Virus record (IMG/VR): IMGVR_UViG_3300027969_000047
Strand: one strand, 5' to 3'
DNA: 64,000 nucleotides
Source: a virus
Shown here: positions 33,516 through 43,549 of the stretch, in pieces
Layout of the letters: each line of letters opens with the position of its first letter
Numbering within the stretch: the first letter of the stretch is position 1
The notes under the pieces: model-generated
The model's input: the letters and a program-made list of their open reading frames with translations, nothing else
What the model was told of the DNA's origin: nothing
Databases searched by the model: none
Position numbers and translations under genes: made by a program

Positions 33516-33530
33516 AATGTTCCTATGATA

Positions 33531-33568
33531 AAAAGAGGTGTCACTTTTATGTATGTGACACCTCTTTT
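33531..33568. terminator. Long bidirectional intrinsic terminator
   Basis: AAAAGAGGTGTCAC...GTGACACCTCTTTT, a 14-bp inverted repeat. Confidence 0.8.
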
Positions 33569-33582
33569 ATTTTCAGGCTTTT

Positions 33583-33828
33583 TTAGGCAAAAGCACTAGA
33601 ACCCATAACTGCATATGCAGTTGCAACCATAGCACGAGTTGGATTACCCAAACGGTATGCGGTACCGTTTTTAGTTTTGTTGGTATAGATGCTGTAACCT
33701 TCTGCACGGAGTTCTTGAACACGAGCAGGCAATCTAGCAACACCAAAGCGGCTTTGAGCCTCTGATTCAGTCAGTGATTTTCCTGTGCTGAAAAACTGTA
33801 CCAATTTTTCGTTTTGTGATTTAGTCAT
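33583..33828 (-). CDS. Small winged-HTH DNA-binding protein
   Basis: SLTESEAQSRFGVARLPARVQELRAEGYSI; GAGG RBS. Confidence 0.75.
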   Translation of the reverse strand: MTKSQNEKLVQFFSTGKSLTESEAQSRFGVARLPARVQELRAEGYSIYTNKTKNGTAYRLGNPTRAMVATAYAVMGSSAFA

Positions 33829-33848
33829 AATTAACCTCATTAATGTAA

Positions 33849-33894
33849 GTCGCACTTTTCAAAGTATAACCTGAGAGGCGACATATCTCTCAAG
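33849..33894 (-). ncRNA. H-type pseudoknot in the 5' leader of the HTH gene
   Basis: S1 CUUGAGAG/CUCUCAGG; S2 GUCGC/GCGAC. Confidence 0.55.
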
Positions 33895-33902
33895 ATGTTA
33901 GT

Positions 33903-33941
33903 ATTATAATAGAAAAAGACCCTTTGGTCAAGGGTCTTTTC
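33903..33941 (-). promoter_or_regulatory. Sigma70 promoter TTGACC-N17-TATAAT overlapping the terminator hairpin of the AAA+ gene
   Basis: AAAAGACCCTT-GACCA-AAGGGTCTTTTT hairpin with the -35 across its loop. Confidence 0.75.
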
Positions 33942-33962: not shown

Positions 33963-35159
33963 TTAGAAAGGAACTTCATCGCCTTTGTATGAAGGTGCAG
34001 TTGCCGTCACTTCAGGCACGGTGTTAGCCATGCTCACGCTTGCATCTACTTTGGTATACAAGTCAAGGAAGGATGCTTTCGTATCTTCATCGAAACGATT
34101 CAGGCAATACTGAATTGCTTTGAGTCGGTCACCAAAGATGCCATATGCTTTCGCAATATGCACAAGACGGCGAGTAGAAATCACTTCATCACAGCCACCA
34201 TCTTCAAAGGTTTTACGAACCGCATCAGCCCACACAACAAGGTTGTCAGCAAATTCATCATCGGCACGACCTTCACTCGCCAATTCTTTCTTAACGATTT
34301 TCTTTTCTACAGTGTTAGGAGCCCAACCTTGTTCGAAGGTAATTGGGAATCGTTCAAGGAAGGCTTCGTTCAGAACATTGGTGAACATGAAACGACCATC
34401 ATCTGAACCTTTACCTTTTGTATTTGCAGTAGCAATGATAGTGAAACCTGCGGCAGGCGCAATCACTTCATTTTTCTTCTTCAAAAGAAACGGCTTACCT
34501 TCAAGGACACGCTGAAGGCATGAAAGGTTCTGAGCACCATAGTCAATTTCATCGATACACAAAACGGCACCTTGGCGAGCCGCAACAGTCACAGGACCAT
34601 CACGCCATACCATCTCACCATTCATAAGAACATAGTTACCGAGCAAATCACTTTCATCGGTTTCAGGCGTCATTGAAATACAAACGAATTTGCGTTTCAG
34701 TTTAGCACACACTTGTTCAACGGACATGGTCTTGCCGTTACCAGATTGACCAGTGATAAACACAGGATAGAATTTATTCGAACCGATGATACGATTCAAA
34801 TCTTCAAAGTTACCAAAGGGAACATAATTTGAATACAGAGTAGGAACCAGATTCATCTGTTCCATGTCAGTGACAAGGTTTGTAATTTTTTGCATTGTAC
34901 TAGGTGCAGGTGATTGTACTGGCATCTGCAAAACTTGTGCAGTGAGATTCACTTTGGCAGTGGATGCTGGAGCCACAATCGTATTAGGAACTTTATACAA
35001 ACCACGACCAAGGCGGTTCTCTTCTTCTTTTGTAAACCACTGAGGAACTTTCATTCCGTTGGCATCACAAATGGTTTGAATTTCTTTAATTGTGATACTG
35101 GCTTGACCAGTAGCGGCAATCAAACTGAAAAACTTATCACGGTTATCACTTCTAGACAT
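33963..35159 (-). CDS. CobS/MoxR-like AAA+ ATPase
   Basis: GQSGNGKT, LCIDEID, ATANTKGKG, LNEAFLERF, ISTRRL. Confidence 0.92.
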   Translation of the reverse strand: MSRSDNRDKFFSLIAATGQASITIKEIQTICDANGMKVPQWFTKEEENRLGRGLYKVPNTIVAPASTAKVNLTAQVLQMPVQSPAPSTMQKITNLVTDMEQMNLVPTLYSNYVPFGNFEDLNRIIGSNKFYPVFITGQSGNGKTMSVEQVCAKLKRKFVCISMTPETDESDLLGNYVLMNGEMVWRDGPVTVAARQGAVLCIDEIDYGAQNLSCLQRVLEGKPFLLKKKNEVIAPAAGFTIIATANTKGKGSDDGRFMFTNVLNEAFLERFPITFEQGWAPNTVEKKIVKKELASEGRADDEFADNLVVWADAVRKTFEDGGCDEVISTRRLVHIAKAYGIFGDRLKAIQYCLNRFDEDTKASFLDLYTKVDASVSMANTVPEVTATAPSYKGDEVPF

Positions 35160-35194
35160 AATAAAAACCTTTCAACATCAACTAATCAAACTAC

Positions 35195-35250
35195 AGTATA
35201 CCTCAAAACCTACCTTTTGTCAAGTCTTTTTTTGTTGTATTTTTACAACA
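35195..35250 (-). promoter_or_regulatory. Sigma70 promoter TTGACA-N17-TATACT with upstream palindrome TGTTGTA-N4-TACAACA
   Basis: -10 at 35195-35200; -35 at 35218-35223; palindrome at 35233-35250. Confidence 0.85.
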
Positions 35251-37561
35251 CTGCAACTTGGTCGATAAATTTTGAGACTAGAACACGGCTCACTTGTTTC
35301 TTTTTAGAAAATTTCATAAAAGCGGTAGCAAGTTTATTGGAAGTAACTTTGCCTTCAACTTCAATAGAATTTTCTTCAACAGCCAATTCAGAGCCACCAG
35401 GAATCAAATAGAAACGGTTATAGCCTTTTGTATATGATTCAATAAACTTTTGCTTACGCATCAGTTTACCCAATTCACTAGCCTTCTCTTGTCTTTGTTG
35501 ATACTCATGTTCTGGAACATAACCATCTTTAAACAAGGTCTCACCTTTTTCATTGGCATAGTATCTGTACACTGCATTTTTAATGCCGCTAGTTTTTGGT
35601 GATGTTATGTAGAAACCAACAACTTTTGAATTGGTAGTCACTTGCAACATTTCCATAAGGCTAGCAGTCATGCCACGATAATCACGATTGTCAACTTTAA
35701 TCTGCATTTTGCTTTTTGGCTCACGCAAAATAACATTGTCACTTGACCTGAAGTTTTTCAAATGAGAACCATCGTGAACATGGTTGCATGAATCAGAATC
35801 ACCATCATGCAAAATAACAATGTTTGAAATTTCAATATTGTTCACTTTGTTGAAATTCTCAACAACAGGTTTCAATGCAACCAAAGCGGCATTCAAAGGA
35901 GTATTCGACAATGATTCACTGTCTGGTATACGAAGACTATTACGATAACCATTCGACTTTGTATATGAATGCATCAACATTACCAGAGCCATCATTGCTT
36001 TGTTAAACTCAGTGGAACTCATGCGAGAATTAATCATCTCACGCAGGAACACTTTGCTAAAATGCAAGTCACCATTATTCTCAGAAAATTGTTTGAATGC
36101 ATAAGTATCCCAAACATTTACTTTATCATTTGGAAAATCTAAATTACGAACACCAACTTCATCACCGAAGCCATATGCAACAAAAGGAATGTTCACTTTG
36201 CGGCAGAAGGAAACTAGAATCAATAACTGTTCAATAGTACCAGCCATGTTATCATGCATGGAGCCAGACTTGTCGAGCAACATCACTAGACCATGAGACT
36301 TGCCTTTTGGCACTCGCATAACCTTGCGGAAGATTTGGTCATCGATTTTGTAATTGTAGATTTTGCTAATATCAATATCACCAGTGTTCGACAATTTAGA
36401 TTTAGAAAACGATTTTGCGGCTTTACGCATTTCGAATTCTTTAGCTAACAAACCAATGTAACGGTCATTCTTAGAACGGAATTCATTCAACAATTTTTGA
36501 CCACTCAGATTAGGATAGAAATCTGAGTAGTGATTCAAAATCTGTTCATTAACTCGCTTGGCAGGTGTAACAATCTTATCCAAGTTTGCAGTTGGAACAT
36601 TTGCATACACATATTGTTTAGATTTTTCATCTAACAGAGAAGATTCATTACGGCGAAACTCTTCATCGGTTTTGCAAACTGGTTGCTTATACGATTCGGC
36701 AGATTCTTTATAACGATTGATGGCTGAACCAACATCGGACTCTTCAGATTCAGAATCATTTTCTTCATCGGAATCATCGAAGTCATAATCACCTTCACCA
36801 GAAGTTTCGGCTTCTGATTTATCTTCACCATCTTCATCACCGTAGTCGGAATCACCTTCATCGGAACCACCGAAGTCATCTTCCATTTCTTCAGAATCAA
36901 AATCATCTTCACTAGATTGTGATTCAGATTTTTCTTCATCGGCTTCTTCAGCCGCTTGTTTTTTTAATTTCTTAGCGGCTTCTTCATTAGCCTTGTTTTG
37001 CTCATCTTGAGAATAGCCGAAGATTTTTGTAGTAACCCGTTCAACATCTTCCCATGTTTCGCATGATTCTACTTCCTTGACCAACAAGGTTTCTTCATCA
37101 TTGAATTTGACAGGCAGAGTGTAACTAGATTTTGTATAGAGGTTCAGACGGTCGATAAAAAACAGACCATCGATTTCGTTTTCTTTAACACCAAAGAAAC
37201 CTTTTTTGAAAAGACCATGGTATGCATTGACAAACGATTTACGAAGACCAGGATAACGGCGTTTGATTTTCTTTTCGATACGGGCATCTTCAATCACATT
37301 CAGGAAGTGTCGAAAGTTTTTACCTTTTTTCGAAGTGGCAGTGTGCCAACCTTTTTCAGGTGTCTCTAATGCGTGACCAACTTCATGGCCCATCAAAAGG
37401 TCGTACAACTCGCCAGTCATTTCTTGCCAGATAGGGCAGGTCAATGTGCGAGATTTTAAATCAAAGGATGCGGTTTTTACAGGCGCATGTACAATTTGAA
37501 TGTCTTCATTAGCCATCAACTTGGCTAGTTGGGACTTAGACTCAACAGAAAAATTTGTCAT
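35243..37561 (-). CDS. Zincin (HExxH) + acidic linker + VWA domain protein (CobT-like partner)
   Basis: HEVGH, NVIEDARIE, D/E/S-rich tract, DKSGSM MIDAS, LHDGD. Confidence 0.88.
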   Translation of the reverse strand: MTNFSVESKSQLAKLMANEDIQIVHAPVKTASFDLKSRTLTCPIWQEMTGELYDLLMGHEVGHALETPEKGWHTATSKKGKNFRHFLNVIEDARIEKKIKRRYPGLRKSFVNAYHGLFKKGFFGVKENEIDGLFFIDRLNLYTKSSYTLPVKFNDEETLLVKEVESCETWEDVERVTTKIFGYSQDEQNKANEEAAKKLKKQAAEEADEEKSESQSSEDDFDSEEMEDDFGGSDEGDSDYGDEDGEDKSEAETSGEGDYDFDDSDEENDSESEESDVGSAINRYKESAESYKQPVCKTDEEFRRNESSLLDEKSKQYVYANVPTANLDKIVTPAKRVNEQILNHYSDFYPNLSGQKLLNEFRSKNDRYIGLLAKEFEMRKAAKSFSKSKLSNTGDIDISKIYNYKIDDQIFRKVMRVPKGKSHGLVMLLDKSGSMHDNMAGTIEQLLILVSFCRKVNIPFVAYGFGDEVGVRNLDFPNDKVNVWDTYAFKQFSENNGDLHFSKVFLREMINSRMSSTEFNKAMMALVMLMHSYTKSNGYRNSLRIPDSESLSNTPLNAALVALKPVVENFNKVNNIEISNIVILHDGDSDSCNHVHDGSHLKNFRSSDNVILREPKSKMQIKVDNRDYRGMTASLMEMLQVTTNSKVVGFYITSPKTSGIKNAVYRYYANEKGETLFKDGYVPEHEYQQRQEKASELGKLMRKQKFIESYTKGYNRFYLIPGGSELAVEENSIEVEGKVTSNKLATAFMKFSKKKQVSRVLVSKFIDQVAVL

Positions 37562-37586: not shown

Positions 37587-37781
37587 CTACAGTATAGCAC
37601 ATTCGGCGGTGCTTGTCAAGTAGTCAGAAAGTTGTTGTCTCAACTCAGGTTTCTGAGACAGAAGTTCACAAAGAAAAGTTTGAATACCTTGGCTTTCAAT
37701 CAATTCTACTACATCCATAGTTACAAACGATAGTTGCATTTCATCAACATCTATCAAGTCATTGAGGGAAGTAATCGGCAT
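37587..37781 (-). CDS. Small hypothetical early protein
   Basis: 64 aa; AAGGA RBS; own promoter. Confidence 0.6.
   Translation of the reverse strand: MPITSLNDLIDVDEMQLSFVTMDVVELIESQGIQTFLCELLSQKPELRQQLSDYLTSTAECAIL
37591..37619 (-). promoter_or_regulatory. Sigma70 promoter TTGACA-N17-TATACT
   Basis: Same TATACTGTAGT start region as the two neighbouring promoters. Confidence 0.85.
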
Positions 37782-37810: not shown

Positions 37811-37866
37811 AGTATACAACAGAACCGAGGTCCTGTCAAGTGTTTTTTTGTTGTATTTTTACAACA
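37811..37866 (-). promoter_or_regulatory. Sigma70 promoter TTGACA-N17-TATACT with upstream palindrome TGTTGTA-N4-TACAACA
   Basis: -10 at 37811-37816; -35 at 37834-37839; palindrome at 37849-37866. Confidence 0.85.
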
Positions 37867-41840: not shown

Positions 41841-43549
41841 TTTGCTATCCTCGAAAAGTTTTTGACTTTCTCAAACTTAATAATGTTTCTAAATTTATCT
41901 TGCAGTATGTCACCCTTATGTGAGATGACAAACAGATTCACACCCTCAAGAAGATGCAGAATTTTCATCAAATCATCTGTGCCATTTGTATCTAATGATG
42001 AATCGAATATTTCATCAAGTATCAGTAGATTGGTGTTTGCTGAGTTTTTCAACTTAGCAACAGCCCGCCATGTCAACATCAGTGCCATATCGATTCGTTG
42101 TTTCTCACCTTCTGAAAATGATTCATAAGTGAAATCATCACGATGCCTTGACTTGATTGTTTCTTTGAAGTTCTCATCAAGTGTGAAGTTAACAAAGAAG
42201 TCCATCGAAGCCAAATACTTGTTCACCAACTTGTTGATGACTGGAAGATATTGCTTGATGATTTTTGTTTTGATACCAGTGTCTTTCAAAAGAATAGATG
42301 CGGCATCATAGTAAGACTTTTCATCAAGCAACACTCTCAGTCGATTCTTCAAATCACTGAGTGTTTGTTTCAAAGATGCCAATGCTAATTCTTCAGCATC
42401 TGTGGTATCTTTGGGCGACTTCAATTCTGCAATTTTAGCATTCAATCTATCAATCTGCTTGTTTGTTTCAGTGATGGCATTGTTGTTTGTTGCAATTTTT
42501 ATCTGTAACTGCTGAACAATTTTCTGCACATTGTTTATCTCACCCAATGATTTTTGCAAGCCTTGAAGTTTCGAATCTAGTTCTTTGAGTCCATGCTCAC
42601 ATTCCGCACTCTTGGTCGAAAGGTTGGCAATCTCCGTCTCTTTAAACCCGATGGCAATGGTTTGCCTACAGGTTGGACAATCGTCATTATGTTGAAAGAA
42701 ACTGATATCTTTTCTATATTTGGATACTGTGCTTTCAATTTGCGATTCAAGTTTTGTAATTTTCTTGAGTTTATCTTCCACCACAATCTTATCTGCCAAA
42801 ACTGCTTGATGCGTTTCGACTTGTACGGAGAGGTTAGCAACTTCTCCATGTAGGGTTTGTATAGTACTCTGATGGCTCTGTATCTCTTTAGCATATTCAG
42901 TCACCTTGTCTTCATTGTTCTGTTTCATGCTTGCAATAAATTTCTCTTGCATAGCAATCTTTTCATTTGATGATTCGATTAACAACTTACTATCTGAAAG
43001 ACCTTGCCTGTTCTCAGATAACTTTAACCTAACAATACCATTCATAGCAGAGAAAATCTGAATGTCTAGCAAGTCTTCAATGATTGCTCTACGGTCATTT
43101 GCACTCAACTGCATGAAAGGAGTGAACGATGCTGAACCAAGAAGAACAATCTGTGTGAAAGATTTGTAATTCAATTTGAGAATGAATTTCTCAAGAAAGT
43201 CTTGATAGTCTCTTGCGGCGGCATCTTGGTTCAGCAGTTCACCATTCTGATAGATTTCAAACACATTCGGTTTGATACCACGAATAATTTTGAACGACTT
43301 GTTGCCTGTATCGAATTCAACTTCTACAACACATTCTTTAGCATTGATTGAATTCAACAGTTGCGGCTTGTTGATTTTACGAAACGGTTTACCAAACAAA
43401 GCAAAGCACACGCCATCAAGCATTGTGCTTTTACCAGAACCATTTGCACCAACAACTAGTGTGTTTTCAAATTCATCAAAACGAATCTCTGTGAAATGAT
43501 TGCCAGTTGAGATGAAGTTTTTATATCTAAGTTTACGAAAAATTATCAT
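41837..43549 (-). CDS. 46: Recombination endonuclease ATPase subunit (Rad50-like)
   Basis: GANGSGKS, CPTC hook, SFSEGE, LDE. Confidence 0.97.
   Translation of the reverse strand: MIIFRKLRYKNFISTGNHFTEIRFDEFENTLVVGANGSGKSTMLDGVCFALFGKPFRKINKPQLLNSINAKECVVEVEFDTGNKSFKIIRGIKPNVFEIYQNGELLNQDAAARDYQDFLEKFILKLNYKSFTQIVLLGSASFTPFMQLSANDRRAIIEDLLDIQIFSAMNGIVRLKLSENRQGLSDSKLLIESSNEKIAMQEKFIASMKQNNEDKVTEYAKEIQSHQSTIQTLHGEVANLSVQVETHQAVLADKIVVEDKLKKITKLESQIESTVSKYRKDISFFQHNDDCPTCRQTIAIGFKETEIANLSTKSAECEHGLKELDSKLQGLQKSLGEINNVQKIVQQLQIKIATNNNAITETNKQIDRLNAKIAELKSPKDTTDAEELALASLKQTLSDLKNRLRVLLDEKSYYDAASILLKDTGIKTKIIKQYLPVINKLVNKYLASMDFFVNFTLDENFKETIKSRHRDDFTYESFSEGEKQRIDMALMLTWRAVAKLKNSANTNLLILDEIFDSSLDTNGTDDLMKILHLLEGVNLFVISHKGDILQDKFRNIIKFEKVKNFSRIAK

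Follow-up and report, generated by a model that had tools for sequence, protein, structure and literature searches.

A leader pseudoknot, probably cis-regulatory, upstream of HTH_39 genes in T4-like environmental phages

Introduction

A gene for a small helix-turn-helix (HTH) protein is located on the minus strand of IMG/VR virus record IMGVR_UViG_3300027969_000047, and the whole 64,000-nt stretch of this record that was analysed is referred to here as the window. The RNA leader of the gene includes complementary segments that could interleave in an H-type pseudoknot, raising the question of whether this fold is more than a chance arrangement and, if so, what it does for the gene. The initial annotation of the window had proposed the fold, and regarded it as either a translational operator subject to autoregulation or an unrecognised ligand-sensing RNA.

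Methods

All loci were gathered via the HTH gene, using searches with the HTH protein and with a protein alignment (A1), which gave 42 + 80 viral-contig loci and 80 metagenome loci; relatives in the protein-based search numbered at least 575. The strict detector used to score the presence of the motif required perfect helices together with a downstream Shine-Dalgarno (SD) sequence and start codon.

The MAFFT alignments are structure-blind, and in the global alignment (A2) family F is one column out of register. Leader families were aligned separately because one covariance model for all families failed. The covariance model R1, built from families A-E and H, detected family F only at 10-22 bits and gave no match to family G.

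Results

Genetic context of the HTH gene

The window is a portion of a T4-like myovirus. The gene order on the minus strand is vWA/CobT-like, CobS-like AAA+ (AAA_5 + CbbQ_C), HTH_39, glycosyltransferase-like, dNMP kinase and gp45 clamp, and the CobS gene shares ~70% DNA identity with its cyanomyovirus counterparts. The CobS/CobT-like pair directly upstream of the HTH gene (33963-37561, minus strand) encodes a MoxR/CbbQ-type AAA+ protein of 398 aa and a 772-aa acidic-linker protein for which there was no Pfam hit. Both of these genes are behind their own early promoters, and the AAA+ gene is also syntenic with the HTH gene in family G (L034) and in the pelagimyophage HTVC008M.

The TTGACC/TATAAT promoter claimed earlier for the minus strand was present (Table 1), and the predicted HTH leader is ~68 nt long. 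As a second, strong terminator lies behind the HTH gene (33567-33530), the gene forms a monocistronic cassette. The promoter is fused to the terminator of the CobS gene, with the -35 hexamer inside the terminator loop and the T-run forming part of the promoter spacer (33913-33939). A terminator-with-promoter layout was also seen in the upstream regions of L119 and L058, in families A and H, where the family H terminator is GAGUGU-UGAC-ACACUC followed by a T-run, and in family B a hairpin makes up the promoter spacer.

Three early promoters of the form TTGACA-17-TATACT (37811-37839, 37591-37619 and 35195-35223, minus strand) have in common a nearly identical initial transcribed sequence, GTAGTyTGATTr. 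These are the strong early promoters of the window other than that of the HTH gene, and their leaders are short and unstructured. The sequence GTAGTTTGATTAG, found after all three, is also located behind the HTH-homologue promoter of L029/L032.

Table 1. Features of the HTH gene and its leader in the window
Feature	Coordinates	Strand	Sequence or description	Basis
S1 5' arm (S1a)	33887..33894	-	CUUGAGAG, purine-rich	direct reading, interleaved-helix scanner, covariation
Loop L1	33883..33886	-	AUAU, 4 nt	direct reading
S2 5' arm (S2a)	33878..33882	-	GUCGC; abuts S1b, L2 = 0	
S1 3' arm (S1b)	33870..33877	-	CUCUCAGG, pyrimidine-rich	direct reading, scanner, covariation
Loop L3	33854..33869	-	16 nt	direct reading
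S2 3' arm (S2b)	33849..33853	-	GCGAC	direct reading, covariation, RNAalifold
Linker from S2 to ATG	33829..33848	-	20 nt, A/U-rich; carries SD GAGG (33838-33835)	
Intrinsic terminator of upstream CobS-like AAA gene	33913..33939	-	stem AAAGACCC/GGGUCUUU + T-run	direct reading
Sigma-70-type early promoter	33903..33931	-	TTGACC-17-TATAAT, 11/12 positions match; expected start ~33896, 0-2 nt before S1	
HTH_39 winged-helix gene	33583..33828	-	81 aa, net basic	Pfam PF14090, phrog_4973, AF2 model
Intrinsic terminator after HTH gene	33530..33567	-	13-bp stem then T-run	direct reading; palindrome also in scanner

Geometry of the leader fold

The arms of the two helices follow one another in the order S1a-S2a-S1b-S2b, interleaved with no nucleotide shared between them, and the same order was found in all families. 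S1 is made up of 8 bp, the second of which is a U-G wobble, and S2 of 5 Watson-Crick bp, the whole spanning 46 nt (33894-33849, minus strand). Direct reading and the interleaved-helix scanner reproduced to the base the geometry that had been proposed, namely an S1 of 8 bp, an S2 of 5 bp, no intervening nucleotide and a 16-nt L3. The accompanying statement that the fold ends just before the GAGG SD was roughly right, the end of S2 being 10 nt from GAGG and 20 nt from the ATG (33828).

Two additional reading frames in this region were considered and rejected. A GTG at 33855 that would extend the HTH ORF to 90 aa is not preceded by an SD and would add residues that are not conserved. A possible leader peptide of 14 codons (33841-33885, minus strand), which begins with an AUG that straddles L1 and the first G of S2a and ends 2 nt before the SD, lacks its AUG in most families, and the frame is probably fortuitous because it is not conserved by the other families.

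Evidence from the single sequence

The nested minimum free energy (MFE) of the leader was unremarkable (z -0.64); a nested folding algorithm cannot hold S1 and S2 together. With the interleaved-helix scanner, the leader obtained a score of 33; in 300 dinucleotide shuffles of its 80 nt, this score was never reached. When both strands of the whole window were scanned, 24 arrangements scored at least 30, compared with 6-19 in shuffled windows, and the single sequence would therefore fail a genome-wide correction. Alone, the single sequence is weak evidence, marginally above chance and not convincing, and the pseudoknot is considered more than chance because of conservation and covariation in homologous leaders.

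Distribution and leader families

The strict detector found the motif in 87 of 193 loci, corresponding to 52 of 122 distinct upstream regions from viral and metagenome contigs. Reading of the upstream regions distinguished at least nine leader families, in which the sequences of S1 and S2 differ and complementarity is retained. S1 is formed by CUUGAGAG/CUCUCAGG in the window and by GGGAG/CUCCC, UUCGGAA/UUCCGAA, GUAGAG/CUCUAC, GCUGGGAGG/CCUCCUAGC, GUUACGAGGG/CCCUCGUAAC or AGAGG/CCUCU elsewhere. The S2 pairs found across families are GUCGC/GCGAC, GUAUCGC/GCGAUAC, GUAUCAC/GUGAUAC, GUGCCGC/GCGGCAU, CCGCCG/UGGCGG, CCACCG/UGGUGG, GGUCGA/UCGACC and GGAUCGA/UCGAUCC. A possible variant in the L105/L106 upstream region (L105:327-371), with a 9-bp S1 (GUUUGUGGU/ACCACAAGU) and an 8-bp S2 consisting entirely of A and U, was kept outside the statistics.

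As judged from these leaders, the predicted fold is common to many T4-like (Kyanoviridae-related) environmental phages. The pseudoknot was not found in the cultured relatives HTVC008M, Mosig, Melnitz and DLP_6. Among homologues with their own promoter, those of L039-L042 and of phages Melnitz and DLP_6, which are more distant, have only a plain 5' hairpin, and homologues located directly behind another ORF, in operons, have no leader and no pseudoknot.

Covariation of the two stems

In the alignment of families A-E and H (A3, 20 sequences), 86.8% of cells were paired. Column shuffles gave 74.2%, with none of the 500 as high, and sliding the partners by 1-3 columns gave 29-52%. S2 was 96.3% paired in this alignment and included four double-sided pairs, with a further five in S1. 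The alignment of family F (A4, 12 sequences) was 91.6% paired and included nine double-sided pairs (eight in S1 and one in S2), again with 0 of 500 shuffles as high, and one S2 pair occurs as G-C, G-U and A-U in four sequences each. The small alignment of family G (A6) also agrees with the pseudoknot, and RNAalifold, run without knowledge of the proposal, returned S2 as the consensus helix of A3.

The initial annotation had staked the proposal on the conservation and covariation of S2 in the leaders of homologous HTH genes, and both were found. Over the alignments, 87-92% of cells pair versus 29-59% in the slid controls, S2 is 96-97% paired with double-sided changes and the G-C/G-U/A-U series, and compensatory change was seen in S1 as well as in S2. 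The non-Watson-Crick cells of S2 comprised 19 G-U and 0 A-C, indicating a fold of the sense RNA rather than of DNA or an antisense transcript, and the reverse complement usually lowered the scanner score. On this comparative evidence, the leader pseudoknot is real, with both stems kept via compensatory mutations in ~50 distinct versions.

Shared anatomy of the fold

L2 is 0 nt and rarely 1-3 nt, and where L2 is 0 coaxial stacking of S1 and S2 is possible. S1 is 4-12 bp long, purines predominating in its 5' strand and pyrimidines in its 3' strand. L1 (1-6 nt) is A-rich in all families. L3 (3-17 nt) is often U-rich and has no sequence conserved across families, and its length is 3-7 nt where S1 is 4-5 bp and 7-17 nt where S1 is 6-12 bp. 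By the published steric rules for H-type folds, these loop lengths are compatible with a pseudoknot in which L1, of at least 1 nt, passes across S2 and L3 spans S1.

The best-conserved nucleotides are located at the helical junction on the continuous strand (UCGC/CUCU and variants, the slash marking the junction) and in their partners. At the junction C-G is invariant and its neighbours are near-invariant, a near-invariant A opens L1, and U or GU usually ends L3 in families A-E and H. In all families, 17-26 nt separate the 3' end of S2 from the AUG and 7-17 nt separate it from the SD, the linker is A/U-rich, and the SD is never inside the fold.

No conserved alternative pairing that sequesters the SD was found in nested ensembles across families. 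Anti-SD sequestration was also rejected as a general mechanism; S1b often has CCUC, but family C is without it and there is no consistent pairing with the SD.

Leader context and gene specificity

The 14 representatives of families A-E and H have a near-consensus sigma-70 promoter, with a match at 10-12 of 12 positions, and as the end of this promoter is 6-9 nt from S1, the transcripts of these families begin with the fold. Family G shares the CobS-HTH-glycosyltransferase synteny of the window, and its promoter lies 28-34 nt ahead of the pseudoknot. A conserved 28-34-nt 5' segment with a small hairpin, AAUC-GUGCGA-GGUU, precedes the pseudoknot in these leaders (L034:1443-1474), suggesting that the family G leader is composite. 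In family F there is no promoter, the motif is found behind the stop codon of an unrelated upstream gene, and S1 is terminator-like. The motif is hence linked to the gene in two contexts, behind the gene's own promoter or behind the stop codon of another ORF. A role in stimulating read-through or frameshifting in the upstream gene was rejected both for family F, where an in-frame stop lies inside S1b, and for the window, where the upstream gene ends >60 nt away behind a terminator.

R1 found one hit in the window, at 53.6 bits with the next at 14.4, and one hit in a 96%-complete 161-kb relative genome. The motif is gene-specific and single-copy per genome, the motif-to-gene direction having been checked in these two long sequences. 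A weak second R1 match in the window (42689-42750, plus strand) is without S2a and was dismissed as noise.

The HTH_39 protein

The HTH protein matched Pfam HTH_39 (PF14090) at 40.9 bits (cut-off 21.3, E 1.9e-10) and also phrog_4973, the function of which is unknown. The AF2 model is confident (pLDDT 83) and has three helices, a two-stranded wing and a C-terminal helix, and a Foldseek search with weak E-values returned only generic winged helices (MarR, ArsR/SqrR, Z-alpha). A PDB sequence search with the HTH protein found no significant relative, and fused or longer forms of the protein were not found. The most conserved residues are located in the wing (GYSIYTN ... YRLGxP). The model confirms the winged-helix fold, and the product is thus small, basic and of a nucleic-acid-binding fold.

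Only one marginal hit was obtained in 185,579 prokaryote genomes, indicating that HTH_39 is a phage protein and giving no host or prophage context. Distant homologues are carried by HTVC008M and its relatives, all Kyanoviridae. In HTVC008M (L220, KC465899.1 91228-91768), the homologue is 111 aa long and its gene starts 2 nt after the phage bS21 gene, downstream of CobS. S21 was absent from five complete related environmental genomes, and this adjacency is therefore not general.

Discussion

A candidate translational operator

The element appears, from the comparisons above, to be a cis-regulatory RNA motif whose job is probably translation control of the HTH gene, and it would act in cis on the translation and/or stability of the HTH_39 mRNA. 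A translational operator, probably autogenous and also capping the 5' end of the mRNA, is tentatively favoured. In the window, the pseudoknot lies at the very 5' end of a monocistronic early HTH_39 mRNA. Coaxial stacking of S1 and S2 would give a single rigid body whose end, 17-26 nt ahead of the AUG, would coincide with the 5' border of the 30S footprint, and the linker and SD would stay free. A protein bound to this rigid body would block 30S loading and so set the level of the regulator, and the most economical candidate for binding would be the gene's own basic winged-helix product. In families with their own promoter, S1 would start at +1 to +3 and should protect the 5' end of the mRNA; under the access rules for RppH and RNase E, a structured 5' end is protective.

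An operator is favoured because the motif tracks one gene through different transcriptional contexts, and because the distance from S2 to the AUG stays within the 17-26 nt range while S1 and L3 vary several-fold in length. It is also favoured because the helical junction, and not the loops, is the best-conserved part, and because the product is predicted to be basic and nucleic-acid-binding in a layout that parallels the T4 gene 32 operator. RNA binding by HTH_39 is putative, as the nearest folds are ordinary DNA-binding winged helices of the MarR/ArsR type, and the 5'-cap role would not be universal since families F and G have the pseudoknot at an internal position. A point against an operator is that several own-promoter homologues carry a simple 5' hairpin and others are in operons without a leader.

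Comparison with known leader pseudoknots

The gene 32 operator of T4 and RB69 begins with a 5' pseudoknot, behind which an unstructured segment carries the ribosome-binding site (RBS) (PMC535899). The HTH_39 leader is similar in that it, too, belongs to a T4-like phage and has a 5' H-type pseudoknot followed by an unstructured A/U-rich RBS stretch. The product is likewise predicted to bind nucleic acid, and autogenous control is the logic proposed here. However, the gene 32 pseudoknot is ~28 nt long and is followed by >40 nt with UUAAA repeats for cooperative gp32 polymerisation (PMC535899). In contrast, the linker in the HTH_39 leaders is 17-26 nt with no conserved UUAAA/UAAA repeats, the product is a predicted winged helix and not a cooperative ssDNA-binding protein, and the two share no sequence relation.

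In the E. coli ribosomal-protein operators (rpsO/S15, rpmI-rplT/L20 and alpha operon/S4), leader pseudoknots by the RBS are bound by a small basic protein that competes with the 30S subunit or traps it. The layout proposed for the HTH_39 leader resembles these operators as well. Those folds in most cases take in the SD or AUG or bridge long distances, and mimic the rRNA site of the protein, whereas the SD of the HTH_39 leader is outside the fold.

Alternative explanations

The main alternative to an operator is a protein-independent cis element that stabilises the mRNA (against RppH, RNase E and RNase J) and/or insulates the RBS from upstream RNA, giving constitutive, context-independent translation with no repressor. 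5' stem-loops are known to stabilise mRNA, ompA being the paradigm, and the HTH_39 leader is like the ompA type in that S1 lies within a few nucleotides of the predicted start in families A-E and H, beginning 6-9 nt after the -10 hexamer in the 14 representatives. Distant homologues swap the pseudoknot for a plain 5' hairpin, suggesting interchangeable structural caps, and there are no loop nucleotides conserved across families to suggest a recognition surface. However, a simple hairpin would suffice for stability, yet S2, a strictly covarying helix additional to anything in the ompA type, is the best conserved and best covarying of the two. The pseudoknot is also internal in families F and G (behind another gene, or with 28-34 nt between it and the promoter), no such cap is found on the phage's other early mRNAs, and a fixed spacing to the AUG would not be needed. 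This explanation is possible but, on balance, doubtful.

A sensor RNA, either a riboswitch or the target of another trans-acting factor (small ligand, temperature, host protein or phage RNase) that tunes the regulator, is improbable. The preQ1-I and SAM-II classes are built on small H-type pseudoknots in which L2 = 0, and the HTH_39 element shares with the preQ1-I/II and SAM-II/V riboswitches a compact H-type fold, coaxial stems and a position in the 5' leader. The concentration of conservation at the helical junction, the near-invariant A of L1 and the U or GU ending L3 in families A-E and H would also suit a sensor. However, in the Rfam search that the initial annotation had suggested, the Rfam 15 covariance models gave nothing relevant for the window (E up to 10) or for 20 family representatives (E up to 1), and no Rfam family, riboswitches included, was matched. 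The free variation of L1 and L3 between families, in both length and sequence, speaks against a riboswitch, the SD and AUG are free of the fold with no conserved sequestering alternative, and the downstream gene is a regulator and not a metabolic or transport gene. The unrecognised ligand-sensing RNA that had been raised alongside an operator is, on these grounds, not favoured.

That the element works as DNA, its inverted repeats being operator half-sites for transcriptional autoregulation by the winged-helix protein and the RNA fold incidental, is quite improbable. The nearest folds of the protein are those of DNA-binding winged helices and most families include a conserved asymmetric block (TCGCCTCT-like), but the spacing between the S2 arms ranges from ~8 to ~25 nt (S1b + L3) and S1 is variable in length and sequence, which is a poor fit to a fixed dimer site. 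The wobble pairs of S2 are, moreover, those of the sense strand only, and the G-C/G-U/A-U series is characteristic of RNA. Elsewhere in the window there was no enrichment of the core nonamer GTCGCCTCT, with 6 matches at up to one mismatch versus 4.0 expected.

A more speculative proposal, which we consider very improbable, is that HTH_39 is an RNA-binding winged helix that represses its own mRNA via a pseudoknot imitating its real target, with the motif mimicking an extended SD:anti-SD duplex and the protein acting on the mRNA-binding platform of the ribosome. When S1 and S2 are stacked, the continuous pyrimidine-rich strand in several families resembles the 3' tail of 16S rRNA (GAUCACCUCCUUA in E. 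coli), as in L145 (AUCACCUCC), L037 (GGAUC-G-ACCUCCUU) and L211 (CACCUCC), and the opposing 'nicked' strand is SD-like, e.g. GGGAG + GUGAUAC. The position of the HTVC008M homologue directly behind the bS21 gene speaks for such a mimic, and the lack of any resemblance in family C and of S21 in the five complete related genomes speaks against it.

It is highly improbable that the element is an attenuator or terminator that limits, by way of S1 and a U-rich L3, read-through transcription of the HTH gene. Family F has a G+C-rich S1 of 9-12 bp with 5-7 U behind it, located directly after the upstream stop codon, and a U-run also follows S1 in families G and H. The combination expected of an intrinsic terminator (G+C-rich hairpin, short loop, immediate U-run) is thus partly present in families F, G and H, but it is not present in the window, where L3 opens with UUAUAC and, as in families B-E, is without an initial U-run. 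The hairpin loops are 9-11 nt (9 nt for S1 in the window), and S2b, which is located beyond the U-run and so cannot affect termination, nevertheless covaries strictly.

A chance arrangement of short complementary segments, in line with the nested MFE and with the near-chance frequency of similar scores window-wide, is refuted by the conservation and covariation in ~50 distinct homologous leaders and retains a negligible probability.

Novelty and significance

Full-text literature searches on HTH_39/PF14090 and on phage leader pseudoknots found no account of the motif. According to its main text, a 2023 catalogue of IMG/VR intergenic regions includes 8,495 unnamed candidate structured RNAs, among them motifs upstream of gp32 (PMC10690425). 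The motif described here may be one of these candidates, and it is neither named nor discussed in the main text of that article. The motif is absent from Rfam 15 and appears to be a new representative of a known class of element, the cis-regulatory leader pseudoknot.

At 46 nt and 81 aa, respectively, the element and the protein are of a size that suits direct in vitro work. If the protein binds the fold, as a translational operator of the autogenous type would entail, a minimal winged helix would have a new, RNA-binding role, and this phage group would have a second autogenous circuit like that of gene 32. The motif occurs widely in uncultured myoviruses of freshwater and marine origin. With it, an RNA family supported by covariation joins the few cis-regulatory RNAs known from T4-like phages, and HTH_39/phrog_4973, a small conserved early regulator, is marked as a gene with probable post-transcriptional control of its dosage.
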